A stretch of DNA of 64,000 nt. Origin: Chiloscyllium plagiosum. Its lineage: Eukaryota. The position numbers and the translations under genes were made by a program. This document shows, piece after piece, positions 12,311 to 59,952 of this stretch. The stretch lies in assembly GCF_004010195.1 (NCBI RefSeq), contig NC_057719.1:49313336-49377335 (forward strand). The letters are read 5' to 3'. Every line of letters starts with the position of its first letter. The first letter of the stretch is position 1. The notes below the pieces were generated by a model. That model had not been told where the DNA came from. It was given only the letters and a program-made list of their open reading frames with translations, and ran no database searches.

Positions 12311-13271
12311 AGTCCACTTTCAAAGAACTGAGAACCTATGCTCCAAGGCATCCTTGTTCAGCAACTCACCCCAGGTAATCACCATGAAGAGCATTAGTCC
12401 TGCCCTGATTTGTCTTTTCAAAATACAGAACCTCATATTTATCTAAGTTCAACTCCATCTGCCATTTCTTGGCCCAGTGGCCCATCTGATCAAGATCTTG
12501 TTGTACTCTGAGGTAACCTCCTTTGCTGTCCACTACACTAATTTTGATGTCATCTGCAAACTTACTAACTATACCTCCTATGTTCACACCCAAATCACTT
12601 ATATAAGGGACAAAAAGCAGTGGACCCTGCACCAATCGTTGTGACACACCACTGGTCACAAGCCTCCAGTCTGAAAAGCAGCCCTTCACCACCACCCTCT
12701 GCCTTCTACCTTCAAGCTAGTTCTGTACCTGAATGGCTAGTTCTCCCTGTGTCTAACGTTGTTAACCAGTCTCCCATGAGGAACCTTGTCGAATGCCTTT
12801 ACTGAAGTCCATATAGATCATGTCCTCTGCTCTTGCCTTCATCAATCCTCTTTGTTACTTCTTCAAAAAATTCAATCAAGTTAATCAGACACCATTTCCC
12901 ATGCAAAAAGCCATGTTGACTATCCCTAATCAGTTCTTGCCTTTCCACATACATATAAATCCTGTCCCTTGGGATCTCCTTCAACAACTTGCGCACCACT
13001 GATGTCAGGGTCACTGGTCTATAGTTTCCACTCTTTTCCTTACCACCTTTCTTAAATAGTGACACCAAGTTAGCTAACCTCCAGTCTTCCGGCACCTTGC
13101 ATGTGGCCATAGATAATACCAATATCTCAAGAAAGGGCCCAGCAATCACTTCCCTAGCTTCCCACAGAGTTTGAGGGTACACCTGATGAAGTTCTGGGAA
13201 TTTATCCACTTGTATACATTTGAAGGTATCCAGCACTACCTCTTCTGTAATATGGACATTTTTCAAGATGT

Positions 13272-13494
13272 GAAAATGTGTTGCTGAAAAAGCGCAGCAG
13301 GTCGGGCAGCACCCAAGGAGCAGGAGAATCGACATTTCGGGCATGAGCCCTTCTTCAGGTTTCCTGAAGAAGGGCTCATGCTCGAAACATCGATTCTCCT
13401 GCTCCTTGGATGCTGCCCGACCTGCTGCACTTTTCCAGCAACACATTTTTAGCTCTGATCTCCAGCATCTGTAGTCGTCACTTTCTCCTAGAAG
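13272..13494. mobile_element. Penelope-derived fold-back insertion (family A) with hammerhead motifs on both strands
   Basis: Inverted arms centred at about 13361; 14-bp TSD ATTTTTCAAGATGT at 13258-13271 and 13495-13508; CTGAAGA-stem-GAAA on each strand. Confidence 0.88.
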
Positions 13495-13719
13495 ATTTTT
13501 CAAGATGTTGTTATTTATTTCCCCAAGTTCTCTCGCTTGCATATTGTTCTCCATAGTAAACACTGATGCAAATTACTCATTTAGTATTTCCCCCAATTCC
13601 TGCGGTTCCATACAGAGGCAGCTATGCCGATCTTTAAGGGGACCTATCCTCTCCCTAGTTACTCTTTTCTCCTTAATGTATTTGTGGAAAAACTGGTTTA
13701 ATCCATGAAAGGTTCCAGG

Positions 13720-15360
13720 TATTTAAAATCAGATGATGAAAGTTGAATAAGGAATTTTATTATTTACTGACCCATTTTTACCAGTCTGCCAACACCTCCA
13801 TGCAATGAGAAACACAGTTTACAGTGAACATTTTTTTATGAGCTCTATATGAAATAATGCAAAAATTGGAATGACATGGACACATGTTCACTCTCTTTGT
13901 CCTAACCTGGGTTTGAAACCTATTTTGGAAATGGTACCCAGACTTGTTCCCTGGCTGTGGAATCTTTCTGAATTTTAACTCTTCACTGCCCAGTTTTTTA
14001 TTCCATGTACTATATTCAGGCATTTTCCAAATTTGATTTCTAGGCGGTGGGTGGGAGGTTACCTGATGTCTGCCTCCCAGATCTGCATCCTGCACCTCAC
14101 TCTCATTTAACTTTTCATCAACCTGTTTGCCCCTTTTGAAACTTCCTGTTGTTCTTTTGATCTCCCAGTAAGCAATTCTGTTTCTAATTCACTGGAATTC
14201 CCATGGCATCTTCATCAATGCTGTTCCTGTGGACTATGTTTCTTTTCCTTTCTTACCTTAATTTTGGGAATGATTTTCTCTGAGCCTGTACCTCGTACCC
14301 TGGAAGATTTACTGCCATCAGGGGGTATTCAGATTTTGCTATTTGTCACCTGTTATCTGCCTTTCCTTTCTCTGCCACAAAACTCGGGGATATTTGGGGT
14401 CTAAACATCTCCTGTATTTCACTGTGAAAGTTTCTGCATTCCAGTGTCCCTGAGTTTATGGGTCTGTTTGTTAACTCATAGATATCAGACAGAATGGCTG
14501 CCTGTCTGGGTCCTCCCACCTAATGTTCTTCTATGTTTCATCTGAGTTAGAAATGGTATTGAGTTATTGAATCTTTGAGGAACGCCTTTCCATATGTGGT
14601 CCCAATTTTAAGTATCTGAACTCACTAGTCAAATGTGAGCTACTTAAATCATTCAAATTCCAGCTATGTCTGGTCAGGCTTTTTCTTGAGAGTAAAGAAT
14701 TGTTGCCAGTAAGCCTCTGGCACTAACTTTTCCACACTGAAAACAGGCCCATTTGCTGCCACCTAGTCATTTACAAACTCCTCAGGCAAGAGGGAGTAAA
14801 CTTTGTGAGCTTTCTCTGTCAACCTGCTTTGTGTCTGCTGTTGGTTTGGTCACTTTAATTGCTGTTCTAACTTCTCAAAGCAATGAAAAGATGTCCATTT
14901 CTTTCTCATCAAACCTGTGGAATGAATGAGTGATCTTGAATATCTCAGCTCTTAAATTTAAGTTTAAGGTGGTTCCCTGAATTCAATGGAATTCTGCCTT
15001 CTCAGCACAAGCCATCTCAGTGACATTCCCTTTCCATCCTGTCCTTCTCTCCCTTCCTTGGAATTTTCTTCCCTTTCCCAAAATTCACTTTCCATCCTTT
15101 GATGTTGAAATTCTACTTCTAATTTCCTGATCTGCTACAGTTTTATTTTATCTGTGTAATTGCCCTCTGTCTCCACCTCCTTGAGGTTTTGCTACACATT
15201 TCGCATTTTCTGTTTCTCTGGCTTTTGGGCAGAACTCACTTTTAAGTATTTAGCTATTACTTGTTCCAATTCTTCCCAGGAGAATACTTTTAATTGTTCA
15301 AAAGTTAACTTGTCCTTCTCTTTGAAAGGAATGACATCAAATGGAGACATCTTTGCACTT
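13720..15360 (-). mobile_element. Gmr1-like Ty3/Gypsy LTR retrotransposon relic (SCAN-like gag region)
   Basis: Minus 14750-14635 translates VEKLVPEAYWQQFFTLKKKPDQT*LEFE, like the Gmr1 gag motif YELVPEAYRQKFR; upstream FEKLEQQLK and QSRLTEKAHKVYSLL; many stops; ends approximate. Confidence 0.7.
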
Positions 15361-15622
15361 TAATGTGATTGACTATTAACTTCCCTCTAGGCTATTAGGG
15401 ATGGGCAATAAATGCTACCCAGTGACACTTTCATCCTGTGAATGAACAAAAAAAGATTGCAGATCCAAGAAAACATTTTCTTGCTTTTTTTTTTAAACAG
15501 CTTTAAAAGAATTACTTATTTTTCCCACTCCAATTCTTATTTAGGCTCTTGGAACATAGCATCTGAGGCTCCAACTTTAGTACAAATAGGTGAGGAGGAA
15601 TGAATGGACTGTCCTCTTTTTA

Positions 15623-16159
15623 GGAGAAAGTGACGAGTGCAGATGCTGGAGATCAGAGCTGAAAAATGTGTTGCTGGAAAAGCGCAGCAGGTCAGGCAGC
15701 ATCCAAGGAGCAGGAGAATCGATGTTTCGGGCATAAGCCCTTCTTCAGGAATGAGGAGGGTATGCCAAGCAGGCTAAGCTAAAAGGTAGGGAGGAGGAAC
15801 TTGGGGGAGGGGTGTTGGGAATGCAATAGGTGGAAGGAGGTTAAGGTGAGGGTGATAGGCCNNNNNNNNNNNNNNNNNNNNNNNNNNNNNNNNNNNNNNN
15901 NNNNNNNNNNNNNNNNNNNNNNNNNNNNNNNNNNNNNNNNNNNNNNNNNNNNNNNNNNNNNNNNNNNNNCCTTAACCTCCTTCCACCTATCGCATTTCCA
16001 ACGCCCCTCCCCCAAGTCCCTCCTCACTACCTTTTATCTTAGCCTGCTTGGCACACCCTCCTCATTCCTGAAGACGGGCTTATGCCCAAAACGTCGATTC
16101 TCCTGCTCCTTGGATGCTGCCTGACCTGCTGCGCTTTTCCAGCAACACATTTTTCAGCT
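15623..16159. mobile_element. Penelope-derived fold-back insertion (family A), assembly gap in its centre
   Basis: Long inverted arms either side of N run 15862-15969; 14-bp TSD CTGTCCTCTTTTTA at 15609-15622 and 16160-16173; hammerhead motifs at about 15718-15749 (-) and 16066-16096 (+, GAAA changed to AAAA). Confidence 0.88.
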
Positions 16160-16578
16160 CTGTCCTCTTTTTAACCTACTCAGTTGACCCCCATGAAGAG
16201 CTTTAACTCTTTTTAGCATGTGGCTGTATCACATTTCAATTAAAACGTAGTTTGCTGGTTCAAATTTCTGGAGCCAATGATAACGTATGCTTGAATGAAA
16301 GGAAAATATTTTTTTATTTTCTGACTAACCCTGAGAAAAATAATAAAGCATGATATCTCTCTCACTCACTCACTTTTAAAAAGAGGCAAGTGCCCACTGT
16401 AAACAGGAAGATTAAAAGAATGTGCAGTTCTTGAGGTGTTAGGTTGAACTTGAAACTTCTTTTTAATCAATGACTTCTGTCCTCAGCTGTAGCAAAATTT
16501 GTAGATGTCTTTGAGTTTTTGGTGAATTTGGATGTTTCTCTGATTTGCTTCCCATCAAGTCTTATCCACTGAGAGGCT

Positions 16579-16600
16579 GAGAGAGAGAGAGAGAGAGAGA
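16579..16600. repeat. (GA)11 microsatellite
   Basis: Direct read. Confidence 0.95.
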
Positions 16601-16851
16601 GGAGCCTTCAGCGCCCTTTTTGCAGAATAGATTTCTGTAAGTTTCCTTTTGGTGCGGGCCATTCTTAGAAGATAATATGTTTGTTGCTTGTTGACAACCT
16701 CGACTATCGTCATCCAACTCAATTCCTTAGGAATATTGTTGAGGCATCCATTTTGTCATTCTTTGTAGGTTTCGGCTAACTCGCAGCTCAGGTGGCTTCT
16801 GCAGTCATCCTAATATCGGGCCCTCGTTACGTAAAGGTGTTTTCTCCTAAA

Positions 16852-17058
16852 GGAGAAAGTGAGGACTGCAGATGCTGGAGATCAGAGCTGAAAATGTGTT
16901 GCTGGAAAAGCCCAGCAGGTCAGGCAGCATCCAGGGAACAGGAGAATTGACGTTTCGGGCATAAGCCTGAAGAAGGGCTTATGCCCGAAATGTCGATTCT
17001 CTTGTTCCCTGGATGCTGCCTGACTTGCTGCGCTTTTCCAGCAACACATTTTCAGCTC
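16852..17058. mobile_element. Penelope-derived fold-back insertion (family A)
   Basis: Inverted arms; 14-bp TSD TGTTTTCTCCTAAA at 16838-16851 and 17059-17072; + strand hammerhead CTGAAGA(16967)-agggc-ttat-gccc-GAAA-tg-TC. Confidence 0.88.
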
Positions 17059-20000
17059 TGTTTTCTCCTAAACAAAAGTCCCAGGTATTAAATCAATCAA
17101 TTGAATTAAAGATTAATAAGACATAATTTGTAACTCCATGACCACCTAGTAACACTTTCAAAGTTGAGATAGCAATGAGTTGCCTGAGAAGGATATCAAA
17201 CATATGAATCAAAGGTGAATAAATGTTGTTGAGGTACAGATGAACAATGATTTGAGTTAATGGTAGAACAAGTTGTAGAGGCTTAATGGCCTACTCCTGG
17301 ATCATTGCTATAGGTTTACTCTTCTTTCTGTAATGCTGTAATCTATTTTTAGGCAGTTCTTCCTAGTGTTTATTATTTAAATGTACAACTGTGCTAAGAA
17401 GAGTTTCTAAAACAATATGGAGAGAATTCCACCAAAATAATGCTTCTATTTGGCTGATATACATTCAGTACATTTTCCATGTTGATTCACATCCTATCTA
17501 CTTAAGCCTAGAGAATTCAGACACAGGTTGGTAACAGTCAGGCCCTATAAGCAGAAGGAAAGGTTACTGCTGAAGCTAAACCAACTCAAACTCCATAACT
17601 TACCAACACAAAGTACTGGAATGCTTCTACTTGTACAGACAGGACTACCCAATTTGTTTGGGCATTGATTTACAAGGTTAGCAGGAGCCAGTGGCAAGAA
17701 TCCCAGCCCTATTTTCTGATCTGCAAATCTTGGATGCATTTGAGCATTCTATTGTACAGCTATTTTCCCTGGTATCATTTTGTTGGATTAAAGGCTATTT
17801 TGCCTGATGAGTCTTGTTCCCACTAGTAGCTGAACAAAACTGCTCAAACTCATTATACAAATAATTAAGGGAGGAGTCACAGATGTTACATATTGGATGA
17901 CATTACTGGTGTCCAAGGTTAGAAGTGGCCACACATAATCCTCCCGTGGTATTTTGCAATTAAAAATAATTAGTACATAAATTAAGTCATTGAATACTGA
18001 TTATAATAATGATGAACTTTAATATTATATAAATAAAGCTCAGTTGTCCATTTCTCTGTTATCTACTGGGCTACTGTCACTATATATATGATGTACTATT
18101 TTACTCCAGATAATGAATCTAATCAATAAAGTTAATTTTATATAACTGATTTCAGTTTTCCCTTATTAACAGCACATATATAAACAACGAGAAGTTATGA
18201 GATGATGTGTAAACACTGAGATGGCGATGTTTGGCTGCTTAACACCCTTTTTAACTTTCTGGTGACTTAAGTTATGTTTTGTCCCTAAAATTGTATCTGT
18301 GCTATGCATGCACACATCTGGTGTGAGCAGGACCTGACTGTATTTTGGTCAGGCCATTATTTCACACAGTCTGCCTGCTGGAATCATACAGCTGAGGCAG
18401 ATTATTATGTCATTCAGTGTGTAATGCTGACTTGATACCACCTTTGCCATTTTGGCATTCAGTACTTCAGCTAGCATTCTTTTAGATATGCACAGCAGTA
18501 TTGTGTAAGATAATGGTTCTGTAGCGGTTAATATTCATGTTACATTTGGTTCCAGTCATTCTATTGATGTGAAACAGTTTGTGGCTGGAGACAAGGAATT
18601 CTACTTTAGCTCTCAGAGGTAGCAGATATATCTGTAACAGCTCCCTAAGGTCCTAGTAAAAATGTCTGAACAAACTTACTGCTAATCCAGTTTCTATTTC
18701 ACTATACTACTTACTATTGGTACTGCAATAAACCGTCTTGCTATGTGAAATTTGTGTCCCTCTGAACAAACCTACAGTGTGTAATATCTGCAACAAATCA
18801 CTAACTATGCCTCAGACAAAGTAAAGGGAAATTAGCATTTGTGGCAAATAACTATTTCAGAGAACCCATGCCTGGTGCCATATGTTCTTTAAAATAACAA
18901 ACGATACAGGTTACCGGAAATGGTCACCTTGGAAAATGACACATTGCTGCAGCAGTGTGAATCTGGTCCTCAACATGAGCAGAAGAAATCCAGAAGACCA
19001 AGAGGCAAAGGAAAACTTTATGGTATGTTTGTTTACCACTTTAAGAGTATTACTGCTTTAAGAAGATACAAATAATCATTTGGCGAATAAAAGTATTTGT
19101 CAACAGTGAGAGATGGCAGTAGGTATGGCAGCAACAACAACAAAAAATAAAGTTAGCACTCCAAAAGCAAAACTTCATTCAGAAGCTGATAAGAAGTCCT
19201 TGGACAAAATTGTAAGGTAAGGAAGAGAGAGAAAAGCATAGAAAATAAAATACAGGGCTCCTTAGCTATGGAGGTTCTGTAAGGAACATACAAAGCAGCC
19301 AGGAAGTAGTATGAGATCCTTCAGGGAAAACTGAATAACTATGTGAAAATGGTACAAAAATCATAAAGGGAAGGGAAGAGAGTGTAAAAGAGAATTTTCA
19401 TCTCTCATAATGAGCATCACCACTATCGGCATTAGTATTCATAAGATTCAACAGCAATGAACATAGAAAAAGCCAGCAATGAAATTTAGACCGAGGCAAT
19501 AGATAAACTCTCAGGGCTGATTTCAGATGATAAACAGTAACCTTAAATGAACCCAGTAAAAGAGTCCAGCAGAAGAAGAAAATTCAGGAAAATTTAAAGA
19601 TCTATAAGGGCTGCAACATGATAGTTTATTTTGGCAGAACGATCAACAATTGCAGCTAGAATACTTTTTGTTTAAAACATTGTACAGAAGTTCTTGGTGT
19701 TTTAAACCATGAAAAGCAGAAAAGCATCCATTTTACTTGGACAGAAGTGGGAAAACTACAACTTCTGCAGATAGTGGGGAAACTATCAAAGAAGCAGGTT
19801 GCCATAATTTTGTTTGTTATAAAAGGGAGAAGAAAACCCCCAAAAAAGACAGAATAACCCAGTAAACAGTGAAGAAATGTAGTATTACAAAGAAACAGAT
19901 TTAAAAATTACGGAGGAAGTAAGTTATTATGAATAGGCAGTGATACACCTTAAAACTTTACTGAAGAATTCAATACAATATTACAGGAATAGAGTTTTAA

Positions 20001-20249
20001 AACATGACAAATAAAGGAAATACTGTAACATTGTTGTGGTACAGAATGTAATCAGTTTTAGTCTTCAATTTAAAATGTAAAAGGGTAAATGCAAGAATAA
20101 AAGCTTAAAAGACAGCAGATTATAAACAGTATTGCAATGATACAGATTTTAGACGACTTTATGCTGTTGACATTAATCAGCACATTGACAAGTAATAGAG
20201 AAATATTTAATATTTCTGAGAAGATTCAGGGCAGAGATGGACAATACAG

Positions 20250-21030
20250 AACACAAGATTGCATTTCATGGTGGCAACATTTTTTAAATTTACTATATTA
20301 TCACAAAATGAAATGCTAAGACCAAAGCTGAACGAATGAATATGCTATTGCATTCAATAGGTCTGATTATAGATAATGTAAGTTAACAGACAAAACACCC
20401 ATGAGAGTACTTCATCTCTTGAAGATATCTGTAAAGCTTTTGATAATCACTTTATTTAAGAACAAATAAAATTCTTGAATGCACAAACTTTAGTGGAAGA
20501 GTTCTGTTTCCAGAAGACTCTGTAGAGAATTTATTAATAACCTCTACAGAATAGTGGAAAACTGTGAGTATGAAGATTTGGAGTCAGAATTCATACAAGA
20601 CAATTATTGGTGGAATTCTTGATTTAACATTGTCATATTTTTTACTGTTCATGGAAGATTTAATTTTGGAAGCAGAAATCAGAAAAGACTAGTACATAGC
20701 TCGTCACTCACATCCCTTCAAAATAGCAATAGTCTGTTAACTTTACATGGCATGGACACTCTAAAGATATGTGACATGCCTACACAGAGGACAAGCCTAA
20801 TTTTTTTTTTAAAGTGTTGGTTCAGGGTAACAATGGCTCATAGATACAGACAATGTCCAGCTATCACAAATGGATGCTACATTTGTAAACTGCAAAGATG
20901 ACACTATATGATGTGTGTGCAATAACTTTCAGAAGCATAGGAATGCAATAGGTTTCAGTAAATTGTATTGCATATAAAGAAACTTGAAAACGTGAATTTT
21001 TTGCAAGGGTCTGCACATATATCTTGACTT
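20250..21030 (+). mobile_element. degraded Ty3/Gypsy gag with zinc-knuckle remnants
   Basis: Across frameshifts: EDICKAFDNHF/NKILECTNF..EDSVEN/INNLYRIVENCEYEDLESEFIQD/IIGGILD..EDLILE, then HRYRQCPAITNGCYICK at about 20840-20890. Confidence 0.7.
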
Positions 21031-21039
21031 CTCCAAAGG

Positions 21040-34103: not shown

Positions 34104-34340
34104 TGTGATTGTGCAGGATGCCACTAAGAGGGTAAATGGATTAGGATAGAAAATCAAATAAGCCGAAACTAATCATTGGGTGGCTCCAATTGTGTGTGTG
34201 TGTTTTAAATCTTTGTAAGAGGAAAGAAATACTGAAGGACATAAGTTTGAGAGTTTTTGAATTCCAGGCAAGGTTTCAGTTCAAGGCAGGAGACAGCTCT
34301 GATGCTAAGTAAATTGGACTGATTCTGTCTGAAGCCTAGA

Positions 34341-34714
34341 TTAGACTGGTGCTGGAAAAGCACAGCAGGTCAGGCAGCAACCGAGGAGTAGGAAAATCGA
34401 CATTTTGGACAAAAGCCCTTCATCAGGAATGGAGGCAGGGAGCCTCCAGGGTGGAGAGATAAATGGGAGGGTGGTGGGGTTGGGGAGAAGGTAGCAAAGA
34501 GTACAATGGGTGGGTGGAGGTGGGGATGAAGGTGATAGGTCAGAGAGGAGGGTGGAGCGGATAGGTTGGGAGGGAGATTGGAAGGTAGGACAGGTCATGA
34601 GGATGGTGCTGAGCTGGATGGTTGGAACTGGGGTAAGGTGGGAGGAGGGGAAATGAGGAAACTGGTGAAGTCCACACTGATGCCCTGGGGTTGAAGTGTT
34701 CCGAGATGGAAGAT
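34341..34714 (-). mobile_element. Penelope-like element 3' end (ORF C-terminus, 3' UTR, decayed hammerhead)
   Basis: Minus 34714-34652 translates IFHLGTLQPQGISVDFTSFLI, resembling the PLE GIY-YIG C-terminal motif; CTGATGA..stem..AAAATGTC at about 34398-34427; degenerate 20-bp direct repeat (17/20) at 34321-34340 and 34712-34731. Confidence 0.85.
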
Positions 34715-37700
34715 TCTGTCTGGAGTTTAGACAGATGGGATGTGGATCTAAGGTAAGGTGCCAGGTAGTTGGACTGGCTGGGCACAAGCTGGGAAGTGTA
34801 GCAAGTAAGTGACGGAGTGTTTAGGAATGGGCAGGTGATTTAGCATCAGTTAGCATGAGGCGTGGGAGGTGTTGGGTCCTGGAGGTGTGGGAAGGGTGCC
34901 AGGTCCAGCAGCAGGTGAGAGGTTGGGTATCAGTTGATGTCAGGGGTGCGATGAATAAATGGTGCTAGAAGTGACAGGCTTTGTCAGATTTCATGGTGGG
35001 GAACTTTGGGTTCTGCGGGTAAATGGTGATGTTAGATCCTGGGGTAAAGAAGGAAATTTGGAGAGGGTTTGTTAGGTCCTACGGGCGGGTAGGGTACTGG
35101 GTTCAGGGCAAAGGTAGAAGTGATATTGGGTTGTCGTGGCAGGGAGGGAGTAGAGGGTTATTGTGGGTTAGAGGAGTAGTGAATCCTAGGGCTTGGGATG
35201 TGTTGTTGATGAAGAGTGTGGGTGATCAAGTTGGTGGGGGTGGAGGTTGAGGGGATGGGTGTGAGTGTAATAGTTACTCAAGAGTTAGAGCTTTTAAAAT
35301 TCTAATTTTTCCTGAGTAAATATTTTCTTAACTTCATCAGAAACTCCCCCCAATTCTTCGATTGGAAAGGATAATTTTGGAGGGTTCCAGGCAGAGAGGA
35401 AATGTCCAGCAGAACCTTCAATTTCCTTGGCAATTCCTTTCCAGTCTACTGCATCAGGGATTCCATAGGGTCACAATGCTTACCTTTCATATACTCTGCA
35501 GAACCGATTGTCTGACTGTCATTAGGGTCTCAGGGAGTCAAGCAGTATGCAGAAGGGGCAGGAAAGTGGAAATGAGGCAGGTCAGCCATGCTTGTATTGA
35601 ATACTGGAACAGTCTCAAAGGACCATAGCATCTACTCCTGCTCCTATTTCTTATGGTCTTGAGTTCTTAATTCCACAGTGTAGATGCAAATGTATGTTTA
35701 GAAAGATATAATTATAAATGATCATGCAAAGGGACCTGATAGAGTTTTAGCATTTTATTTACTTTGGGAGCTAAGATTAGACTGTATATTTCAGTTTACT
35801 ATAACATAACCAGTAATGATCTATTTAAATTGAGATTAACTGATCCTTTGGGAATTATAGTAAAAAGCTTTACTGAGTAGCTGTGATTCTTTTCTTTTGT
35901 TCATCAGCAGTCCAGCTCTAGCTGCTTAAATTGGAGGAAGAGTAATTCTGTATTGAACAATGATAAATGTATTTCACTTCTATTTCAACATGCTTCTTGA
36001 GGCTTATGAAAAGGTACATATGGTGAAGATTCCATTCTCCAGCATAAATTACTAAATGAACCAGCCAGCCTGTGTGCTGCAGAAATGCTGTAGTTCAGAG
36101 AATGACAGTCAGCATGCTATGTAAACAATAGTATACATTCGTGCAATGAGTTGTACAATAAGGATGTAACTATTGACAATGATTAATAGCTATTATAATA
36201 TTGGTTCACTAAATAAAAAGGTATGTTCGGAATAATTTTTTTCAGGATGACTGTATTACAAAATTCACAATTTTTCAACATTGATTCATTTTTTAAAGTC
36301 ATTGATAAAACTCCAACTGCCTGAATGGTTTTCCTAAAGGCTCTGGATTCATGGTTTTCATGAGAAATTTTAATAGACATTTGTCAGAAAAGAGTTTTAA
36401 GGATCAAAGATAGAACTGAGATCCAGATCTGCCTTTATCTAATTGCATGGTGGAAGGGACTGGATTGCCTATTTTTGTTCTCAATGTTCATAAGCTTCTG
36501 CAAAACTCATCTTATTGACTGAATTGGGTACCCCAAGTTGAGAACTTCCCAACTCAGCAGATGTACCTCAATATAAAAGTGCCTGTTACATATTACTTTC
36601 ACTGCAGGGGCAGGATCGAACTGGACCTATTGATCCCAGAGGGTGAGTGTTAAGTTGATATTTAGAAGGCCCATCTCAATTCTGTAGCACTTGGTCTTCT
36701 TTGTCTTAGAGGCAGTTAGGCCCTCACACCTTCGTGGTCTATTCACTCCCCATGCACCTTCATGCCAATGCATGCCCTCACACAACCCCAGACTACTTTG
36801 TTGTCATCTCATACTCCAAAGCATACATTATGTCATTTCATATCTCCCTGATGTGTCATAACCACTCATCCATTATTCACTATGGGCAGACTTCAAAACC
36901 AATTGGAGCTTCAAAAAAAAACTTCTAACAATTTATTAACACTGATACAAACTTGATATTCACACTCATCAACTCCATTCAAAAATTTGAAATCTCCTCA
37001 TGCTCACTCTATTGTTAAAAAAAGCTGCGAACTTCCACTTAGTTACTACATCAAAGGATAGTAATACTGCAATCGTTTCTTTAAAGTAGGACTAAAAATG
37101 TCACATCAGAGCCCCCTGCTGAGATACAAATGCTTGAGTTTTCAAAATTTAGCAAGCATTTCTAATGGCCTTTCTGCTTTCGTACCAAGCCTTGGGAAGT
37201 ATCAGCAACGAGGCCTACTGAGGCTGCAGGAATCAATGATAATGGTTTTCTGGATGACTAGTCAGTCAAAGCAATTTAACATCCAATGTATTTATTTTAG
37301 CACTATCTGACAGCGATGCAGTTTTCTTTCATTATTAAAGGGCTGAGGATTTAAATAAACTTACACTATGAAAGTAAACATATTTTAGCCATCGTTCACT
37401 AGCAATTATGCCTATTTTGTAAATTTGTGACTCCCTCAGCCTGGATTAAGACCTTTCAAAAGGCATATTTAAGTTTCATTTAAAATTAGCAATAATTTTA
37501 TAACACCATACTGAGTTTAGAATTGCTATCTGATTCATGCCCCAGTCCTTTCACCCCACTAGCAAAGATAGGACATGCTTGAAATAAGGATAGGATTTCC
37601 ACATCTGAATCTCACCCACCAATTTTAAAGGTATTCTGACCAGCTTGGAACAACAGAAATCTGGCCTGGGCATTTTTGATCTTCTTTCCATTCTCTTCTT

Positions 37701-46099: not shown

Positions 46100-47800
46100 A
46101 ACAGGTGAGTTGAGAGAACAGATAGAAACAGGTAAGTGTGATTTGGTAGCTATTACAGAGACTTGACTGCAAGGTAACATGGACAGGGTCCTGAATATTG
46201 AAGGGTATTCAGGAAGGATAGGAAGCTAGGAAATCTAAGAGTTGTATAACAGCAAATTACTGCAGATGCAGGAATCTGTACTGAAAGCAGAACAAGCTTT
46301 CAGCAAGTCAGGCAGTATCCATGAAGAGACAGAGCAAGCCAACATTTTGAGTTAGATGACACTTCGATGAAGTGAAACAAGGGAACGGCGCAGCTTTGAG
46401 AGAGAGTGAGTCGAGGTTGCTGTAGAGTGGAGTCGAGTGTGTACATATGATGTCACATGGCACTCCGTGGATCGCAGGATGTGGCAGGAACAGCAAGGAA
46501 TGTTCTATATCCTGGAGATCCTTGTAATCCTGGGTGGAATTGAAACATGAAAGGTAAAACTTGAGTTGAAACCCATGTGGGGTAAAGTCTGAGTCATTGG
46601 CAGTTGCTGACAGAGCTGTGAAAGTGAATTTTGGCAAACGCCTTGTCGAACACTCACAGTGAAATGAAAAGCAATGAAGATGCATACAGTGGAAGAGTTA
46701 CCAGAATTCCTGTTGGTGGAAAGAGCAAAATTTCTTTAGGATGGGCATTCCTGAAAGTGATGTTGCAGTTGATTAAACACAGTTTAGGAGCAAATTATTG
46801 CAGATGCTGCAATTTGTACTGAAAACAACAAATGCTGGAAATTACAGCTGGTCAGGCAGCATCCACTGAGCACCAACAAGCTAACATTTTGAGTCTAGAT
46901 GACTCTTACAGTTGTGGCCTTGTTACTTAATGATGACAATTTCATAATAGAGAGGGATGACCTAAATTCAGAAAACCAGTTGTGGAAATGATTTGGTGAA
47001 GATGAGAAGTGGGAGTTGATGTACAATCACCAGGGAAGTAATACTGAGTAAATTGTTGGAGCAATGGGCTGACAAGTGCCTAGGTCCTAACCTTAGGGCC
47101 ATAAAACAAGTGGCTAGTTCAATGGTTGATGTATTGATTTTAAATTTGAAAAATATCCTAGATTTTGGGAAGGTCCTATCAGATTGGAAGATATCAGATG
47201 TAACTCCTTTATTCAAGATGTAAGGGAGACAGACAGCAGGAAACTACAGGCCAGTTAGCTTGACATTTGTCATGGGAAAATGCTAGAAGTTATTATTAAA
47301 GAATGTATAACAGGACACTTAGATAATTTCAAGATAATCAGACTTTGTGAATGGAAAATGATATCTAGCCAATCTAATGGAGTTCTTTGAAGAGGTAACA
47401 AAGGTATGGACATCAGGGAACTGGTGGATGGACTGATAATAGATTTCCAGAAGGTGCTTGATAAAATGCCACATCAATTTTTTTTTAATGACAAGTAAAA
47501 GCTCAAGGTTTAGCGGGCAGCATACTGGCATGGATAGAAGATTGGCTGGCTACCAAACAGTAAGTACAATGGGTCCTTTACAGGCAAGACATACTGAGTG
47601 GTGTGTCACAGAGATCAGTACTGGGATATCAACAGTTCACAATTTTTATAATTGACTTGGATGAAGGGACAACAGGTATGGTCTCCAAGTTTTCTGATGA
47701 CACAAAAAAAGATTGGAAAGTAAGTTGTGAAGAAAACAAAAGGATATTAGAGATGGATAGAGGTAGGTTAAGTGAATGGCAAAAATCTGGCAAACGAACA
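46100..47800 (+). mobile_element. old CR1-type LINE ORF2 relic with a nested PLE
   Basis: Endonuclease remnant DLVAITET at about 46140; GNYRPVSLT at about 47239; KFSDDTK at about 47687. Confidence 0.8.
46251..46907 (-). mobile_element. Penelope-like fragment: two direct pLTR repeats flanking ORF remnant
   Basis: Repeats 46251-46365 and 46789-46907 (agcaaattactgcagatgc...gtcaggcagcatcca...aacattttgagt..gatgac); intervening minus ORF FTPHGFQLKFYLSCFNSTQDYKDLQDI. Confidence 0.65.
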
Positions 47801-50310: not shown

Positions 50311-50405
50311 AGTCCAGATTAGAGTGGTGCTGGAAAAGCACAGCAGGTCAGGCAGCTTCTGAGGATCAGGAAAATCGATGTTTCAGGCAAAAGCCCTTCA
50401 TCAGG
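50311..50405 (-). mobile_element. Penelope-like terminal fragment with hammerhead motif
   Basis: Minus: c-CUGAUGA-agggc-uuuu-gccu-GAAA-ca-UC-gauu; same subfamily as 34341-34430. Confidence 0.8.
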
Positions 50406-50554
50406 GAGGGTTAATAATTTGGGAGGCTGAGGTCGATCACCATGTGGACAAAGTGAAGTTTGTCCATGACCCTTAGTGAGAGGAGTGTGCAGTGGGAGAG
50501 TTCAATGGAGTGGTAGCCCTGTTAATGTGAGGCCAGCAGAGAGGATGGTGCCAC

Positions 50555-50790: not shown

Positions 50791-51482
50791 AGGTCTGTTC
50801 CTGACTTGCGGTGTCTGTAGTAGCATGCAGTTTAGTTTTACCATGAACAGCAGAACATCCCAGCAATGGCGAGCATAGTGTGCCTTTCCTGCCACACAAT
50901 TCCCTGAGAAAGGAGCATAGGATGCATTATTAATGAGATGGAAAGTAAAAGATTATGTGACAACTGTTGTTTTGAGGTCTGGCAGGACAGGTATGATGAA
51001 TCTCATATCACAAAACATTTCAACCCATGGAAAAATTCAGCCCATGATTTTACATTAGACTATAACAATGAATAATTGAATAACATCTCCTCATTTTCTG
51101 CCAAGGAACATGGAGAGTTGTGATTACCAGAATAACTTCTTTATGCATGGAGTTATTGCTCTAGAATAACCATTTCATAAGAAGAATTAACATGATTTAT
51201 GACAACTGGACTTTTTAAAGTTACTGTTCAGCTAGTCAAACAACTGACTTCTTCCCTTTTAGGAATATTTTCTGAGCATTAACAATATTTTATGTGAGAA
51301 AACTGCAATCATTAAATGTTGGAGCTGTATTGACCATGGTACATAATTGATTTGGCTTAATAATGATTATATTACTTTGCTGAAGATTTCAATACAAGTG
51401 AAAATCTGGCAAGTGGGTTGAACCAAGTGGGCAGTGCAAATTATTCTCAATATATTTTCTGAAATGTTGTTTACATTATTGA

Positions 51483-51941
51483 GTGTACAAAAAGATTCAC
51501 AAAGATGTTGCTAGGGCTGGAGGATTTGAACTATTGGGAAAGACTGAATAGACTGAGGCTATTTTCCCTGAAGTGTCAGAGGCTGAAGGGTGACCTTATA
51601 GAGATTTATAAAATCATGAGGGGCATGGATAGAGTAAATAGACAAGGTTTTTTTCCCTAGGGCGGGGCAGTCCAAAACTAGAGGGCATAGGTTTAAGGTG
51701 AGAAGGACGTACCGGGCAACTTTTTCAAGCAGAGGATGGTGTGTGTATGGAATGAGCTGTCAGAGGAAGTGGTGGGGGTTCGTACAATTACAACATTTAA
51801 AAGGTACCTGAATGGGCATATAAATAGAAAGGGTTTATAAGGATATGGGTCAAATGGGACTAGATTAATTTAAGATATCTGATCGGCATGGAAGAGTTGG
51901 ACCAAAGGATCTGTTTCTGTGCTGTACAGCTCTACGACTCT
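51483..51941 (+). mobile_element. CR1/HER1-type LINE 3' fragment
   Basis: Collinear with 11795-12280. Confidence 0.9.
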
Positions 51942-52709
51942 AAGAGTGGCTGTTTCAGAACATCAATCACAAGTCTGCTTAACAGTTTTGGTTTCAAGTT
52001 CACTGAAACAAAATATTAAAGATAACCATGAAAAAAGACTGACATGACCTGAATGAGAAGGGCTGGTAGCTGTCTACTGTGTTGGTGCTAATCATATACC
52101 TCAAAGGGAATATGCATGTGGCATGAGGTACCACATTTGAGTGGAGTATGTGGTTGCTTGTGTGTACTATTTATCTTTGTTGTATCAATTACCTAAAGAG
52201 AATTTTATCTTTTTATTTGAAATATGATTTGTCTGATTCTCTTGTGTTGGTTCTGATTCATGTTAAAACAAAAGCTACAAAAAATAATGTTTTTGGTAAT
52301 TTCTTCACTTGGAGTGCTATTCAGTAAATTTGTGGCTCCCATAACAAATATGGGGCAAGTTTCGCATATGATCACAGAGACTGGAATGAACATTCCAACA
52401 TTTTAACAGGCAATATTGCAGCTCTGCATTTGTCATATTTTATTGGAAAATCAATATGACTACCTTTGAGGCTTAAGCTGAGTTTAGGAAGGTGGCTTGA
52501 CTCTTGACAACTTAAACAGTTGCAAAAACTCAATTTACAGGATGTAACAGAGCAAACGGGGATTAATGAAAGCTCAGTAGATAAGAGAGTTGGATTCTTG
52601 AAGAATTGGCTAGACACTTGAGGCTCAGGGAAGGAAGAATCATTATTGACCAAGTACAACTGGCCAGAATTTTTAAAAAAGGCTAAGAAAGGTTAACTGA
52701 GAAAAAGAA

Positions 52710-52947
52710 GTCATGATTTGGAGATGCCGGTGTTGGACTGGGGTGTACAAAATTAAAAATCACACAACACCAGGTTATAGTCCAACAGGTTTAATTGGAA
52801 GCACACTAGCTTTTGGAGTGTCGCTCCTTCATCAGGTGATAGTGGAGGGCCCGCCACTACCACTTGATGAAGGAGCGTCGCTCCGAAAGCTAGTGTGCTT
52901 CCAATTAGACCTGTTGGACTATAACCTGGTGTTGTGTGATTTTTTAA
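52710..52947. mobile_element. Penelope-derived fold-back insertion (family B) with two opposed hammerhead motifs
   Basis: Inverted arms centred at about 52845-52855; AGAAAAAGAA at 52700-52709 and 52948-52957; + core TTGATGA..GAAAGCTA, - core CTGATGA..AAAAGCTA (one core mutation each). Confidence 0.85.
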
Positions 52948-55432
52948 AGAAAAAGAAATTAGCCAGAGAAAAAAAGAAATAAAGAGATATGTAAAGAGAC
53001 AACGACAGCGAACATGTATCTCTTAGAACTGCCACTAAAACAAATTATGCATTTATTTTTCCCATTTGTTTATGAAGCTTTGCTGTTTCTCTCCCATTAG
53101 TAGCCATACTTTATGCAAACTACCAGATGTCAGAATTACATCATTGGCTGTATAGCACTTTGGTATGCCCTGAGACCATTTAAAAAAAGTAAAAGTGAAG
53201 TCACCATAGTCCTACTGGACCATAGGGCTGCTCTCTTATCAGAGAGAGCGAACTGATAATTGTTTAACCTGAGGGCTGTCACACCTCAAGTGAAACTTAA
53301 GAAAAAAAACTTAGTGATCCTTGCAATTAAACTTTATGGTTATCAATTACTGTAATTTTTATATAATTATATAATTTGCTCAACTTCAGTGATTTTGTTT
53401 TGTTGAAGAATTAGTTTATGATTTTAAAATATTGTTCTCAATATGCATATTAATCTAATTTTAAACCTGATGCATTTATAACTATTATAAATATGACTCA
53501 TTGTGGTGGAATCATCCACTGGGAGGCTCTTATATGGTCTTTTAATATTCTTTTCAGTGGCATTTGGAATGGGAGGAGTGACAGCGAGAACCAGAGGCCT
53601 GACGGGAAGGTAAATTAACAGTATACAAACTTACCTCGTGTACAGGCGGAGTGCACGCTGAGCAGGAGTGGATATGAGACTGCTGTGTAAAGGAGATTAC
53701 ATATTTGAACAGTTACTTTACCCGAAACACTACTTAGGTAGTGTCTCCCACCCATCCTCCTCCTCTAACCAAAAAAAAGGTTCTCTGCTTTGGATTGGTA
53801 AGATGAGTAGTCTTTTATTTCCTCTCTTTTAGTTTTTCAGTAGGCTCGTTGGGAATTTAGAATAGTGGGAATGGAGGTTAGGGCAATTGAGTGTTCCTCC
53901 TGCAGAATGTGGGAGGTAAGGGTCACCACTAGTGTCCCTGTTGACTGTATTTGTGGGAAGTGCACCCAACTCCAGCTCCTTGAAAATTGCATTAGGAAAC
54001 TGGAGCTGGAGCTGGATGAACTTTGGATCATTCAGGAGGTGGGAGATTATTGAGAGGAGTTACAGGAAGGTAGCCACATCTCAGGTACAAGAAGAAGGTA
54101 GGTGGGTTACTGTCAGTGGATGGAAAGGGAACTGGCAGGCAGTGCAGGGATCTCCTATGGCTGTTCCCCTCAATAACAAATATACCATTTTGGATATTGT
54201 TGGGGGGGGGGGGAACTTATCAGGGGTAAGTAATGGGGCATAGGTCTCTTGTGTCTGTCCCTGTTGCTCAGAAGGGAAGGGGGAAGAGGAGCAGAACATT
54301 AGTCATTGGGGACTCCATAGTTAGTGGTACAGACAGGAGGTTCTGTGGGAATGAGAAAGATTCATGGTTGGTGTGATGCCTCCTGGTTGCCAGGAATCGT
54401 GATGTCTTGGACAGTGTTTTCAGGATCCTTGAGGGGGAGGGGGAGCAACCCAAGTCATGACCCACATAGGCACCATCGACATAGGTAGGAAAAGGCATGG
54501 GGATTTAAGTCAGAAATTCAGGGAGCTGGGGTGAAAGCTTAGAGCTAGAACAAACAGAGTTATCTCTGGTTTGTTGCCCGTGCCACATGTTAGCGAGGCG
54601 AGGTGAGGAATAGGGACAGGGAGGAGTTGAATACATGGCTACAGGGATGGTGCAGGAGGGAGAGTTTTGGATTCCTGCATTTATGGGGCTCTTTCTCGGG
54701 TAGGTGGGACATCTACAAACATTTAGATGTCTTCAGAGGGGTACCAATATTCTGGGGGGGGATGTTTGCAAATGCTGTTCGGGAGGGTTTAAATTAATTC
54801 AGCAGGGGGATGGGAACCTGAATTGTGTTCCAGTATACAGAAAGCTGAGAGTAGTGAGGTCAGAAATAAGGTTTCAAGGTCTCAAGAGGGTACCAGCAAG
54901 CAAGAAGTTGGTTGGAAGTGTGTATATTTCAATGCCAGGAGCATCCAGAATAAGATGGGTGAACTTGCAGCATGGTTGGTACCTGGCATTTCCATGTTGT
55001 GGCCATTTCGGGGACATAGATAGAAAAGGAACAGGAATGGTTGTTGCAGGTTCCAGGATTTAGATGTTTCAGTAAGAACAGAGAGAATGGTAAAAGACAG
55101 GGAGGTGTGGCACTGTTAGTCAAGGACAGTATTATGGTAGCAGAAAGGATGTTTGAGGACTCGTCTACTGAGGTAGTATGGACTGAGGTTAGAAACAGGA
55201 AAGAAGAGGTCACTCTGTTTGGAGTTTTCTATAGGCCTCCAAATAGTTACAGAGATGTAGATGAACAGATAGCAAATATGATTCTCGATAGGAGCAAGAG
55301 TGACAGGGTATTTGTTATGGGGGACTTTTAAGTTTCCAAATATTGACTGAGAATACTATAGTTTGAGTAATTTAGATGGGTCAGTTTTTGTCCAATGTGT
55401 GCAGGAGGGTTTCCTGACACAGTACGTAGATA

Positions 55433-55631
55433 AATGTGTTGCTGGAAAAGCGCAGCAGGTCAAGCAGCATCCAAGGAGCAGGAGAATCGACGTTTTGGGC
55501 ATAAGCCCTTCTTCAGGACTTATGCCCAAAACGTCGATTCTCCTGCTCCTTGGATGCTGCCTGATCTGCTGCGCTTTTCCAGCAACACACTTTTCAGCTC
55601 TAATCTCCAGCATTTGCAGTCCTCACTTTCT
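55433..55631. mobile_element. Penelope-derived fold-back insertion (family A) inside CR1 ORF2
   Basis: Inverted arms; 15-bp TSD CACAGTACGTAGATA (55418-55432) and CACAATACGTAGATA (55632-55646), one mismatch. Confidence 0.88.
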
Positions 55632-55758
55632 CACAATACGTAGATAGGCCAACAAGGGGCGAGGCCACCTTAGATTTGGTACTGGGTAATGAACCCGGCC
55701 AGGTTTTCGATTTGGAGATAGGTGAGCACTTTGGTGATAGCGACCACACTTCAGTTAT

Positions 55759-55953
55759 GTTTACTTCAGTGATGGATAGGGATAGATATGTTCTGCAGGG
55801 CAAGAATTATAGCTGGGGAAAAGGAAATTATTCTGGCGCTGTGAGGCAGCAGTGCTAACCACTGTGCCACCGTGCCGCCCGTTTACTTCAGTGATGGATA
55901 GGGATAGATATGTTCTGCAGGGCAAGAATTATAGCTGGGGAAAAGGAAATTAT
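55759..55953. repeat. 73-bp perfect direct repeat flanking a 49-nt HE1 SINE 5' head (minus)
   Basis: 55759-55831 equals 55881-55953; 55832-55880 is the reverse complement of gggcggcacggtggcacagtggttagcactgctgcctcacagcgccaga. Confidence 0.9.
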
Positions 55954-58079
55954 GATGTGGTTAGGCAAGGTTTAGGATGTATAGGATGGGGAAGGAACCT
56001 GCAGGGGATGGGCACAATTGAAATGTGGAGCATATTCAAGGAACAGCTACTGCGGGTCCTTGATAAGTATGTACCTATCAGGCAAGGAGGAAGTTGTCAA
56101 GCACAGGAGCCATGGTTTACTAAAGAAGGTGAATCTCTTGTCAAGATGAAGAAGAAGGCTTATGTTAGAATGAGACACGAAGGCTCAGTTAAGGCACTTG
56201 AGAGTTACAAGTTGGCCAGGAAAGACCTAAAGAGAGAACTAAAGAGCCAGGAGGGGACATGAGAAGTCTTTGGCAGACAGGATCAAGGAAAATCCTAAAG
56301 CTTTCTATTGGTATATCATGAATAAAAGAATGACTAGAGTAAGATTAGGGCCAGTGAGAAGTTGTGCGTGGAGTCAGAGGAGATAGGGGAAGTGCTAAAT
56401 GAATATTTTTTGTCAGGATTCACACTGGAAAAAGATAATGTTGTCAAGGAGAATACTGAGATACAGGCTATTAGAACAGATGGGATTAAGGTCCACAAGG
56501 AGGAGGTGTTAGCAATTCTGGAAAGTGTGAAAATAGATAAATCCTCTGGGCCGGATGGGATTTATCCTGGGATTCTCTGGGAAGCCAGGGAGGAGATTGC
56601 AGAACCTTTGGCTTTGATCTTTATGTCGTCATTTTCTGCAGGAATAGTGCTGGAAGACTGAAGGATATCAAATGTCCCCTTGTTCAAGAAGGGGAGTAGA
56701 GACATCCCTGGTAATTATAGACCAGTGAGCCTAATTCCACTTGTGGGTAAAGTGTTGGGAAAAGGTTATAAGAGATAGGATTTATTATCATTCAGAAAGG
56801 AATAAGATGATTATAGTTTTGTGAAGAGTAGGCCATGCCTCACAAACCTTATTGAGTGCTTTACCAAACAGGTGGATGAGGGTAAAGCAGTTGATGTGTA
56901 TATGGATTTCAATAAGACGTTTTGATAAGGTTCCCCACAGTAGGCGATTGCACAAAATACGGAGGCATGGGATTGAGGGTGATTTAGTGATGTGGATCAC
57001 AAATTGGCTATCTGTAAGAAACGTTCATGTTAGAATTCAGTTACTAGTGGCAAGGATCTGTTTTGGGGCCACTACTGTTTGTCATTTTTATAAATGACCT
57101 GGGTGAAAGCATAGAAGAATGGGTTAGTAAATTTGCAGATGACACGAAGGTTTTTTGGAATTGTGGATAGTGCCAAAGGATGTTGTGGGTTCTAGAAGGA
57201 CACAGATAGGCTGCAAAACTGGGCTGAGAGGTGCCAAATGGAGTTTAATGTGGAAAAATGTGAGGTAATATTCAGTTTGGAAGGAATAACAGGAATGCAG
57301 ATGAGCAAAGTGATCTCGATGCCCATGTACATAGATCCCTGAAAATTTGCCAGCCAGGTTGATAGATTGTTAAAAAGGCATACAGTATGTTAACGTTTAT
57401 TAGTAGAGGGATTGAGTTTCAGAGCCATGAAGTCATGCTGCAGCTGTACAAAACTCTGGTGCAGCTGCACTTGGAGTATAGTGTACAGTTCTAGTCATTG
57501 CATTATAGGATGGATGTGGAAGCTTTGGAAAGGGTCCAGAGGAGATTTACTTGGATGTTGCCTGGAATGGGGGGAAGGTCTTACGAGGAAACGCTGAGGG
57601 ACTTGAGGCTGTTCTCATTTGAGAGAAGAAGATTGAGAGGTGACTTAATTGAGACATACAAGATAACCAGAGGGTTAGATTGGGTGGACAGTGAGAGCCT
57701 TTTCCTCGGATGGTGATGGTCATAGCTTTAAAATGAGGGGTGATACAGGTCAGAGGTAGTTTCTTTACTCAGAGAGTAGTAGGGGTGTGGAATGGCTTGC
57801 CTGCAACAGTAGTAGACTTGCTGACTTTAAGGGCATTTAAATGATTATTGGATAGACATATGGATGATAATGGAATAGTATAGGTTAGATGGGCTTCAGA
57901 TTGGTTCCACAGGTTGGCGCAACATCGAGGGCCAAAGGGCCTGTACTGCACTGTAATGTTCTATGTTCTATTTTATACCTGAAACTATCTACATTCTTGA
58001 TTTTTAACTTCCCATGAGTGATCATTTAAGCTGGTCATTTATATGCCTTTATTAACATGATCAATGAGAAGTCAAGAAC

Positions 58080-59110
58080 AGCATCAAAACTGTCTTCACT
58101 TTGCTGGGTGCTGATATCCATTCAGGTCAAAACCTGTAATGAAGATAAAGTTTAAGCTGAAGACTCCAGAGAGTAATCCCATGAAAGACCAAACCAAAAG
58201 AGATAAACTGCAAGAGGAAGATTTAAAGAAGAAATATTCTGTGCAAGTTATTATCAAACATGAGTTGTGACTTCATGACATAACAGAGCTAGATATTAGT
58301 GAGAAGGAAACAACAGAAAGGCATTGAGAGAGATTGAAACAGCAAATGAAATTGTGAAAAACTGAGATGGTGTACAAGAAAATGAGGAGGAAACATCAGA
58401 AGTAGGTGGCTGATGGAACATCAGATCTGATGGAGAAAATAAGACAGTATAAAAACAGTAAGGAAGACAATGTCAAAATAGAAAAACAGATTAAAAATCA
58501 TGTACTCAAGGAAAGATGGTACGAAGAGTGTTCCAGGCAATAGAAGACCTGAAGCAACATGAGAGCATCACATAAGAAAGTTAAGGCGCTCTCTAATAAG
58601 AATTGTAAAATCCTTACAGATTGGAAGTAGGCCTTTTGGCCCATCGAGTCCAGACCAATCTTCTGAAAAGCATCCCACCCCACAATGTTATCCCTGTAAC
58701 CTTGCATCTCCCATGACTAATCCACCTAGCCTGCATATCCCAGGCCACTATGGGTAATTTACTATGGCCAATCCATGACCAAGAAGAAAAGAATAGCTAC
58801 AAGCTGTGGTTGTTCAAACAGCAAGAAAGGCAACATTCTCGTCAAACAATAAAGCTGTAGAGAAACAATGGGGTAAAGTATATCAGAGAGCCGTTTAACA
58901 ATGAAGACAAGAGTGAATTGCTACAGTCAGAGAGCAGAAAAGGACTAGATAGAGTAGAGACAGAAGTCACTGCAACATCCAAAAAATAAAAACAAGGAAA
59001 GGTCCTGAACATTTGAAGACACTCCCTTGTTCAATCATGACAGAGTTTAATGTTAAGATGGGTTCCATGGAAAGGATAGCTATCATTCGGACATGATTGG
59101 AACATCGAGT
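58080..59110 (+). mobile_element. degraded RTE-like LINE relic
   Basis: A-rich sense strand with remnants KERWYEECS, HKKVKAL, KKGNIL, KIKTRKGP resembling the RTE endonuclease-RT linker; weak. Confidence 0.45.
58612..58776 (-). mobile_element. HE1-related SINE 3' fragment
   Basis: ggcccatcgagtcc...actatgggtaatttactatggccaatcca is similar to the HE1 body. Confidence 0.65.
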
Positions 59111-59757
59111 GATGCTAAGGATTGTTATCTTTTGAATGAAATGACAATTGCTTGCACAAGTGATGAAGAAAAGTGAACATTTTAAAAAATGGGATGACAT
59201 ATTTACAATGAAGTTTCACCCATGTCATCCATATATCCTGAAGGGTTTCTTTTTCCTTTCCCACTCTTTTGATAAGGGAGCTGGCTGACAAGCTCTTATC
59301 ATGTCTCACCACTTAATTGATTCTGATATAGATTCTGAAATACCCTTGTATGATTTCTATCAGTTTCTAGTTCGTTTAAACACTCCATTATTTTGTGATG
59401 GCAGATTTTACCTTCCCATACATACATAAGCTTTTGCACTTACAGGTATTCTTTAATGACAAATACCCTTGTTCCTTGTTTTGTTGTCGTGAATCCTGGT
59501 TGTCTATCATCTGTCTCCTCTTCTATATAGATTTGTCACTTTATTTATAAAATAATTACTAGAATCATTTTCATCACGTGGCTTATTATCCAGTCCTTGA
59601 ACATTTTGGGGCTTTGGTTTCTTTGAAACCTTAATGAACACTGACTTCTGTAAAGACCCCATATTTTTTATTGTTCTTTATTTCTGGATTGTGAACCTGA
59701 ATGGAATAAGGGGAGTGCTTTAAACCAAGGAGTGTGTGTGTGTGTTAAACATCAATG

Positions 59758-59938
59758 TTGAAAAATGTGGTGCTGGAAAAACACAGCAGGCCAGGTAGCA
59801 TCCTGAGGAAGGGCTTATGCCTGAAACGTCGATTCTCCTGCTCCTTGGATGCTGCCTGGCCTGCTGTGTTTTTCCAGCACCACATTTTTCAACTCTGGTA
59901 CTCCAGCACCTGCAGTCCTCACTTTCTCCTAGTTGATC
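59758..59938. mobile_element. Penelope-derived fold-back insertion (family A, short left arm)
   Basis: 13-bp TSD TTAAACATCAATG at 59745-59757 and 59939-59951; inverted arms. Confidence 0.88.
59799..59834 (+). ncRNA. minimal hammerhead ribozyme motif (intact core)
   Basis: auc-CUGAGGA-a-GGGC-uuau-GCCU-GAAA-cg-UC-gau: both core boxes, palindromic ACGU, GUC cleavage triplet, auc/gau stem I. Confidence 0.75.
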
Positions 59939-59952
59939 TTAAACATCAATGG

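Follow-up and report, generated by a model that had tools for sequence, protein, structure and literature searches.

In a 64,000-nt stretch of Chiloscyllium plagiosum contig NC_057719.1 (positions 49,313,336 to 49,377,335; the window), five short insertions of one repeat family, family A, each consist of two head-to-head arms, and the centre, where readable, lies near a hammerhead ribozyme motif and has one fixed side and one variable side. A sequence-only reading of the window had described these insertions as independent products of a fold-back or template-switch step in the integration of a Penelope-like element (PLE), with a centre that differs each time; the recognition of a fixed side is a useful correction to that description. 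On balance, we lean toward each copy being the result of one insertion event of an endonuclease-bearing PLE, in which two complementary DNAs (cDNAs) were primed, one of them ran off the 5' end of the RNA, and the two were joined at microhomology. Self-comparison of the window recovered the five family-A inverted insertions at the places where they had been reported, together with two unrelated inverted insertions of a second family, family B, and two uninverted relatives.

Each family-A copy is bounded by a target-site duplication (TSD). The duplications of copy 1 (13258-13271 on the left, plus strand, and 13495-13508 on the right), copy 2 (15609-15622, plus strand, and 16160-16173) and copy 3 (16838-16851, plus strand, and 17059-17072) are 14 bp long and exact, and that of copy 5 (59745-59757, plus strand, and 59939-59951) is 13 bp long and exact. 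The 15-bp duplication of copy 4 (55418-55432, plus strand, and 55632-55646), which lies inside a reading frame resembling that of a long interspersed nuclear element (LINE), has one mismatch and 10 exact bases. The lengths of 14, 14, 14, 15 and 13 bp are thus as first reported, exact in copies 1, 2, 3 and 5 and with the single mismatch in copy 4, and the duplicated sequences are unrelated between copies. When random pairs of positions were put through the identical search, an exact repeat of at least 13 bases was found in 3 of 4000 cases and one of at least 10 bases in 19 of 4000.

Empty sites are available for copies 1 and 4; copies 2, 3 and 5 have none. The copy 1 target occurs once in a paralogous LINE in the window, near 10641-10654, with 13 of 14 letters alike, and this paralog passes from the left flank straight into the right flank. 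Removal of copy 4 and one TSD in silico yields a 62-codon open frame, and the frame around copy 4 has a weak endonuclease-domain match (E 0.13). The TSDs of these two copies were therefore created by insertion, and the two checks support the staggered cut of about 14 nt that had been proposed. An uninverted sister-subfamily copy (34335-34711, minus strand) also carries a 14-bp TSD, with one mismatch (34321-34334 and 34712-34725), indicating that the stagger of about 14 nt is independent of the inversion. In a second organism, where copy 2 alone among the five was checked for an orthologous insertion, one contig crosses the left flank and enters copy 2 by 32 bases, and the copy 2 insertion is thus common to both organisms.

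Element positions count from the core C of the hammerhead, at window position 15748 in copy 2. In all five copies the arms are head to head, with the 3' ends of the element on the outside, next to the TSDs, as would be predicted if both nicks served as primers; copies 1 and 5 carry 6-9 extra bases between +125/+126 and the TSD. As the sequence-only reading had noted, one arm runs to a common end and the other stops short: in 5/5 copies the long arm ends at +125/+126 and its partner at about +85 to +95, giving a one-sided tail of 30-40 bp. The arms lack poly(A), and both cover one overlapping segment. In copy 1, the short, tail-less arm (13272-13359, minus strand) has its inner end at -1 and the tailed long arm (13361-13494, plus strand) at -3. 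In copy 3, the tailed long arm (16852-16967, minus strand) ends at +10 and the short arm (16966-17058, plus strand) at -1. The short arm of copy 4 (55433-55518, minus strand) ends at -2 and its tailed long arm (55519-55632, plus strand) at +12, or at +8 if one later substitution is allowed. The short arm of copy 5 (59758-59803, minus strand) ends at +45 and its tailed long arm (59801-59938, plus strand) at -2. Copy 2 is larger, with a tailed long arm (15623-15861, minus strand) that extends upstream of the core by 113 bases or more and a short arm (15970-16159, plus strand) that does so by 98 or more; its centre is hidden by a run of N at 15862-15969. This is the sole N run of the window and sits at the centre of its longest palindrome, a kind of structure that breaks assemblies.

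The motif in copy 2 (15721-15752, minus strand; core C 15748, predicted cut after 15721, -4 base 15752) fits the published minimal hammerhead in its core, the one extra base before stem II, the G-C first pair of stem II and the palindromic pair before the cut site at +28 (PMC4209133). A hammerhead descriptor matches in family A, family B and the sister subfamily, all of which would thus carry the motif; stem II of family B is different yet predicted to pair. Rfam returned no match at the gathering threshold.

In the four copies whose centres can be read, one arm always ends 1-3 bases before the hammerhead core. The partner arm is variable, ending at +8 to +45 in copies 3-5 and at -3 in copy 1. 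Five of the eight readable arm ends fall in one interval of 3 bases, which under uniform placement has a P between 3e-5 and 1.3e-3, according to the range used; for all four copies to share such an interval, P is 1.5e-4 to 6.6e-3. The interval was picked after inspection of the data, and the simulation scans all intervals of that width. The earlier statement that the centre differs each time therefore holds in that 4/4 readable junctions differ, and fails in that one side is fixed at -1 to -3. Similarly, the placement of the centre in or next to the hammerhead is correct for the readable copies, whose centres are at most 45 bases from the core, and incorrect for copy 2, where the centre is at least 98 bases upstream.

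A fixed and a variable side could also arise if a symmetric palindrome formed first, with both arms ending near -4, and one-sided deletions at the centre followed. Perfect palindromes are known to suffer deletion at the centre. Copy 1 is almost symmetric (-1/-3), and the shortened arm can be either one, the long arm in copies 3 and 4 and the short arm in copy 5. The arms of copy 2 and of the family-B insertion at 1-339 extend far upstream of the fixed end, which speaks against this sequence of events, and we regard it as unlikely.

The arms of one copy do not always nest. In copies 3 and 4, two of the four readable copies, the tail-less arm holds upstream bases that are absent from the tailed arm, and vice versa, so that neither arm is a subset of the other. 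A simple snap-back of one target-primed cDNA therefore fails for these two copies, and the fold-back step of the earlier reading falls with it in this simple form. The joints share 2 bases in copy 3 (16966-16967) and 3 bases in copy 5 (59801-59803).

The insertions are independent of one another. Arms within one copy differ at 19 of 386 columns, as against 371 of 3467 between copies, and private substitutions are shared 10 times in the 5 within-copy pairs compared with 9 times in the 40 cross-copy pairs. This likeness and these shared private letters indicate that the two arms of a copy derive from one source variant or were homogenised later. The within-copy similarity and the 4/4 differing junctions agree with the claim that these are independent insertions and not a family of miniature inverted-repeat transposable elements (MITEs). 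A MITE family would have a common internal structure, symmetric terminal inverted repeats and a fixed short TSD; the junctions here differ, the ends are asymmetric and the TSDs are of 13-15 bp and unrelated sequence, and the family-A copies are excluded as a MITE family. Amplification of the whole palindromic unit in a MITE-like manner would explain an inverted structure with TSDs, and a few gapped joints in the sequencing runs described below lie on contigs of depth 70-340, so that some junctions are multi-copy. Given copy-specific letters on both arms, a varying TSD length and uninverted relatives with the same ends and TSD length, such amplification is barely credible. Tandem direct hammerhead repeats that yield circular RNA, the hallmark of retrozymes, would be a different arrangement; such direct repeats are absent from the window, where the copies are inverted or single.

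The basic structure of an inverted copy with a tail and a TSD is already described for PLEs, and the family-A copies are a clean example of a known insertion pattern. Endonuclease-positive PLEs leave insertion units that consist of an inverted, 5'-truncated copy with a 30-40 bp tail at one end and a TSD (PMC3846280, PMC8557442). The copies in the window share several features of such units, namely a head-to-head inverted copy and a one-sided tail in 5/5 copies, a TSD and a minimal hammerhead descriptor, with palindromes at some junctions as in the published accounts. They differ from the units described there in being stubs of 45-240 bp without an open reading frame (ORF) and in having one inner end fixed, and their TSDs of 13-15 bp are longer than the 8-10 bp of the rotifer PLE examples. 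Minimal hammerheads in PLE terminal repeats have been reported as solo motifs and as opposite-strand pairs 100-700 bp apart; the Results and Discussion of that paper map no junctions and name no sharks (PMC4209133). We found no published account of an inner end that is constant at the hammerhead's 5' edge, in a search that left most subscription journals outside its reach.

The closest biochemical parallel is PAc (Poseidon of Anolis carolinensis), which in vitro nicks and extends both strands, starts internally on its RNA at two sites that define the tail, gives a product that shortens when the RNA is truncated at its 5' end, and does not need hammerhead cleavage (PMC11167929). The two PAc start sites are 30-40 nt apart and downstream of the hammerhead, and the tail seen here matches that gap; the main text of the PAc paper maps neither the inner junction nor the RNA 5' end. 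The copies also resemble products of L1 twin priming, in which a second nick primes a second cDNA, the TSD is a discrete 12-18 bp and the inversion junction shows microhomology (PMC11702581). In L1 the two cDNAs copy adjacent parts of one RNA, whereas the two arms here are copies of a single 3' segment; this requires two templates, or one that is used twice. The overlapping arms and the lack of poly(A) set the copies apart from twin priming of the L1 type.

Under the reading that we favour, both target strands were cut 13-15 nt apart, as the TSDs show. Both 3' ends would then prime reverse transcription on one kind of RNA, as PAc does in vitro, with one start at +126 and the other at +85 to +95; the difference between the two starts would be the tail, which may fall on either side. 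The RNA would begin at -4, just before the hammerhead, leaving only about 90-130 nt between its 5' end and these internal start sites, and a cDNA would often run off that end, producing the fixed inner end. The run-off end would join the other cDNA at a nearby microhomology of 2-3 bases, leaving the variable inner end, a step visible in part in the joints. Since the two cDNAs have equal polarity, they can pair only through a few complementary bases, which leads to a microhomology join. Longer arms such as those of copy 2 would come from read-through RNA. The hammerhead would mark the place, and its cleavage would go unused. We consider an RNA start at -4, with run-off, to be a plausible explanation for the fixed inner end.

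To examine this end outside the window, public sequencing runs, three of DNA (X1, X12 and X5) and one of RNA (X21), were mapped to the copy 2 long arm and its left flank. Each DNA run gave 91,000-104,000 contig records, which do not measure copy number, and the RNA run gave 3546 reads; the positions below are from the 24 of 1073 loose-end rows and the 15 of 87 joints listed. Inner loose ends at 15752 (-4) comprise 375 contigs in X1, 344 contigs in X12 and 163 reads in X21, a pile about as large as that at the outer end, 15622 (381 in X1). The flanks beyond 15752 are unlike one another (agreement 0.31-0.41), and with no common flank these are ends joined to host DNA, uninverted. In all 11 opposite-strand joints listed, one side lies at 15736-15754 (6 at 15750-15754) and the other is spread over 15658-15719. 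The joint positions recur in all three DNA runs and may be shared old insertions. RNA-read depth drops about 8-fold across 15745-15757, or from 596 to 164 once sister-subfamily reads are removed; these drops are upper bounds, since clipping also affects divergent sequence upstream.

Two of the DNA runs list 15752, and in each of them the first loose letter past it is C (P of such a plurality about 1e-5 under window base frequencies). C is the letter that a copied cap would give, and so hints at an RNA 5' end; in L1, the cap accounts for an additional G found at 5' junctions (PMC11702581). Position -4 coincides with the A of what we take to be an initiator-like heptamer; the 239-base arm has 2 of these, and their frequency is 1.3 per 100 positions. 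We treat the heptamer and the extra C as weak hints of an RNA start at -4. A splice acceptor was considered as the cause of the fixed end and rejected, as the sense strand lacks an AG preceding -4 and no consensus emerges from the flanks at 15752.

Three of the joints listed are head-to-tail joints elsewhere in the genome. In each of the three DNA runs, the joints 15748->15663 and 15751->15667 define a head-to-tail unit of 85-86 bases, bounded by the short start site and the fixed inner end; tandems of this unit would yield dimeric hammerheads and offer a possible route to retrozyme-like RNAs. The joints 15658->15736 and 15658->15743 represent some genomic copies in which one arm consists solely of the 37-base tail and the opposite arm, to which it is joined, extends as far as the hammerhead.

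The sequence-only reading had suggested that the hammerhead defines where reverse transcription turns. As to place this stands, since the fixed end lies at the 5' edge of the motif; as to cause it is unsupported, since the fixed end is neither at the cut site nor at a stem and family B follows another pattern. For the motif itself to set the turn, reverse transcriptase would stall at the folded hammerhead or copy self-cleaved RNA, and then fold back or switch template. This would account for the nearness of every readable family-A centre to the core, and in 6 of 13 listed joints or gapped joints the variable side lies at 15716-15725, close to the cut site at 15720/15721. However, the sides of all 11 opposite-strand joints listed are at least 32 bases apart; near-symmetric joints such as those of copies 1, 3 and 4 thus seem to be invisible on contigs, and the cluster at 15716-15725 may be the edge of the visible range and is not to be trusted. 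No peak at the cut site (+28) appears among the loose-end rows listed, and the fixed end lies 28-32 bases upstream of that site, at the exit of the motif, where reverse transcriptase has already unwound it. The hammerheads of four arms fold no more stably than shuffled sequences (z -0.37 to 0.03), snap-back fails in copies 3 and 4 as described above, and PAc insertion is unchanged by hammerhead mutants (PMC11167929). Together these points make a hammerhead-directed turn very unlikely.

Family B bears on the same question. One head-to-head insertion of this family (52710-52947, unstranded) has its own minimal hammerhead and a 10-bp TSD, and a 6-base palindrome marks the arm ends, which lie about 15-18 bases upstream of the core. 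A second (1-339, unstranded) is cut by the window start, has a small junction palindrome and a right arm from near +53, and one arm extends about 190 bases upstream. The family-B arm ends are thus near -15, -18 and +53, and their position elsewhere argues against a general hammerhead rule. At 235-300, the junction of the second insertion contains a near-perfect 19-base palindrome before the right arm, as if the cDNA end had snapped back and then switched.

Palindromes at both family-B junctions would fit a different origin, in which a self-primed DNA hairpin is resolved by the element's endonuclease, the fixed end reflects endonuclease cleavage at an ATT triplet that starts at -4, and one arm loses its tail by trimming. 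Self-priming at junction palindromes with resolution by the endonuclease has been proposed for PLEs (PMC3846280, PMC8557442), and PAc has a preference for 5'-ATT-3' and is able to cleave its own terminal repeat (PMC11167929). The private letters shared by the arms of one copy would also be expected from a hairpin, but two RNAs transcribed from one source locus, or gene conversion at a later time, would also explain them. Against this route, the arm contains 5 ATT triplets, and among the inner-end piles listed one coincides with the triplet at -4 and none with the other four; moreover, the tail has been assigned to two reverse transcription start sites (PMC11167929). We consider this route quite unlikely.

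Several observations weigh against the two-cDNA, run-off reading itself. The copy 1 joint is a 3-base loop without microhomology, and the copy 4 joint is blunt, sharing 3 bases only if one later substitution is assumed; 2-base microhomology is moreover available at 32 of 88 positions, which makes it weak evidence. None of the four arms of the two family-B copies ends at -1 to -4. Among the runs, the 6 rows listed for X5 include 15743, 15748 and 15756 and not 15752, and a pile at 15743 is equally large (385, 319, 371 and 189 across the runs). We read this second pile as probably sister-subfamily copies, clipped at a variant base and ending a few bases further on, because its loose letters begin like the continuation of the sister subfamily. 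An RNA 5' end at -4 was not seen, the table of molecule start and end pile-ups being empty for this polyA single-cell library, of which 2 in 100 reads were used. The extra C is only a plurality, is replaced by A in the RNA run, occurs in no window copy and may stem from a subfamily variant (P 0.35 with equal letter odds). In Drosophila virilis, 46 bases separate the start site from a downstream 75-base intron, and the 3' end of this intron meets the hammerhead (PMC4209133 for the latter); starting directly at the motif is therefore no general rule. Finally, the window holds no confirmed ORF for a telomerase-like reverse transcriptase or GIY-YIG endonuclease, the nearest being a 39-codon remnant.

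This remnant is the open stretch with which the uninverted copy at 34335-34711 begins. It resembles what we take to be the C-terminus of a PLE endonuclease, a likeness that no search confirmed: the remnant matched 0 Pfam families and 0 of 11 candidates in a protein search, had no usable Atlas match, and against the PDB gave one unrelated match (E 0.63). The other uninverted sister-subfamily relative is a stub (50316-50405, minus strand) with an inner end at -1 and a flanking repeat of 7 bp only. Two older, diverged stubs of a related family (46251-46364 and 46789-46907) are in direct orientation and apparently stop near a decayed hammerhead core. Two further observations concern the LINE sequences of the window. 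In the LINE that hosts copy 4, 55759-55953 contains an exact 73-bp duplication around a 49-bp repeat end that resembles a short interspersed nuclear element (SINE), an unusually long target duplication. At 9723-12287, LINE-like copies carry an internal inversion near 10194/10195 relative to their paralogs, suggestive of twin priming or of a later inversion.

How PLEs form inverted repeats is stated to be open (PMC8557442), and the steps after initiation were left unvalidated in the PAc work (PMC11167929). A fixed and a variable inner end turn inverted-repeat formation into a matter of simple counts on assemblies, of the extra G, of arm nesting and of microhomology. For annotation, palindromes of this kind with TSDs should be taken as retroelement ends and not as MITEs. 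We suggest, tentatively, that the abundant short PLE hairpins may be complete and not abortive products, made by a dimeric enzyme that primes both strands at internal sites of a capped RNA beginning at -4, copied to the cap and closed by a microhomology join. If so, one mechanism would account for both the inverted repeat and the tail, and a large set of insertions in the genome would document, in vivo, the two start sites, the 5' end of the RNA and the way in which the cDNAs are joined.

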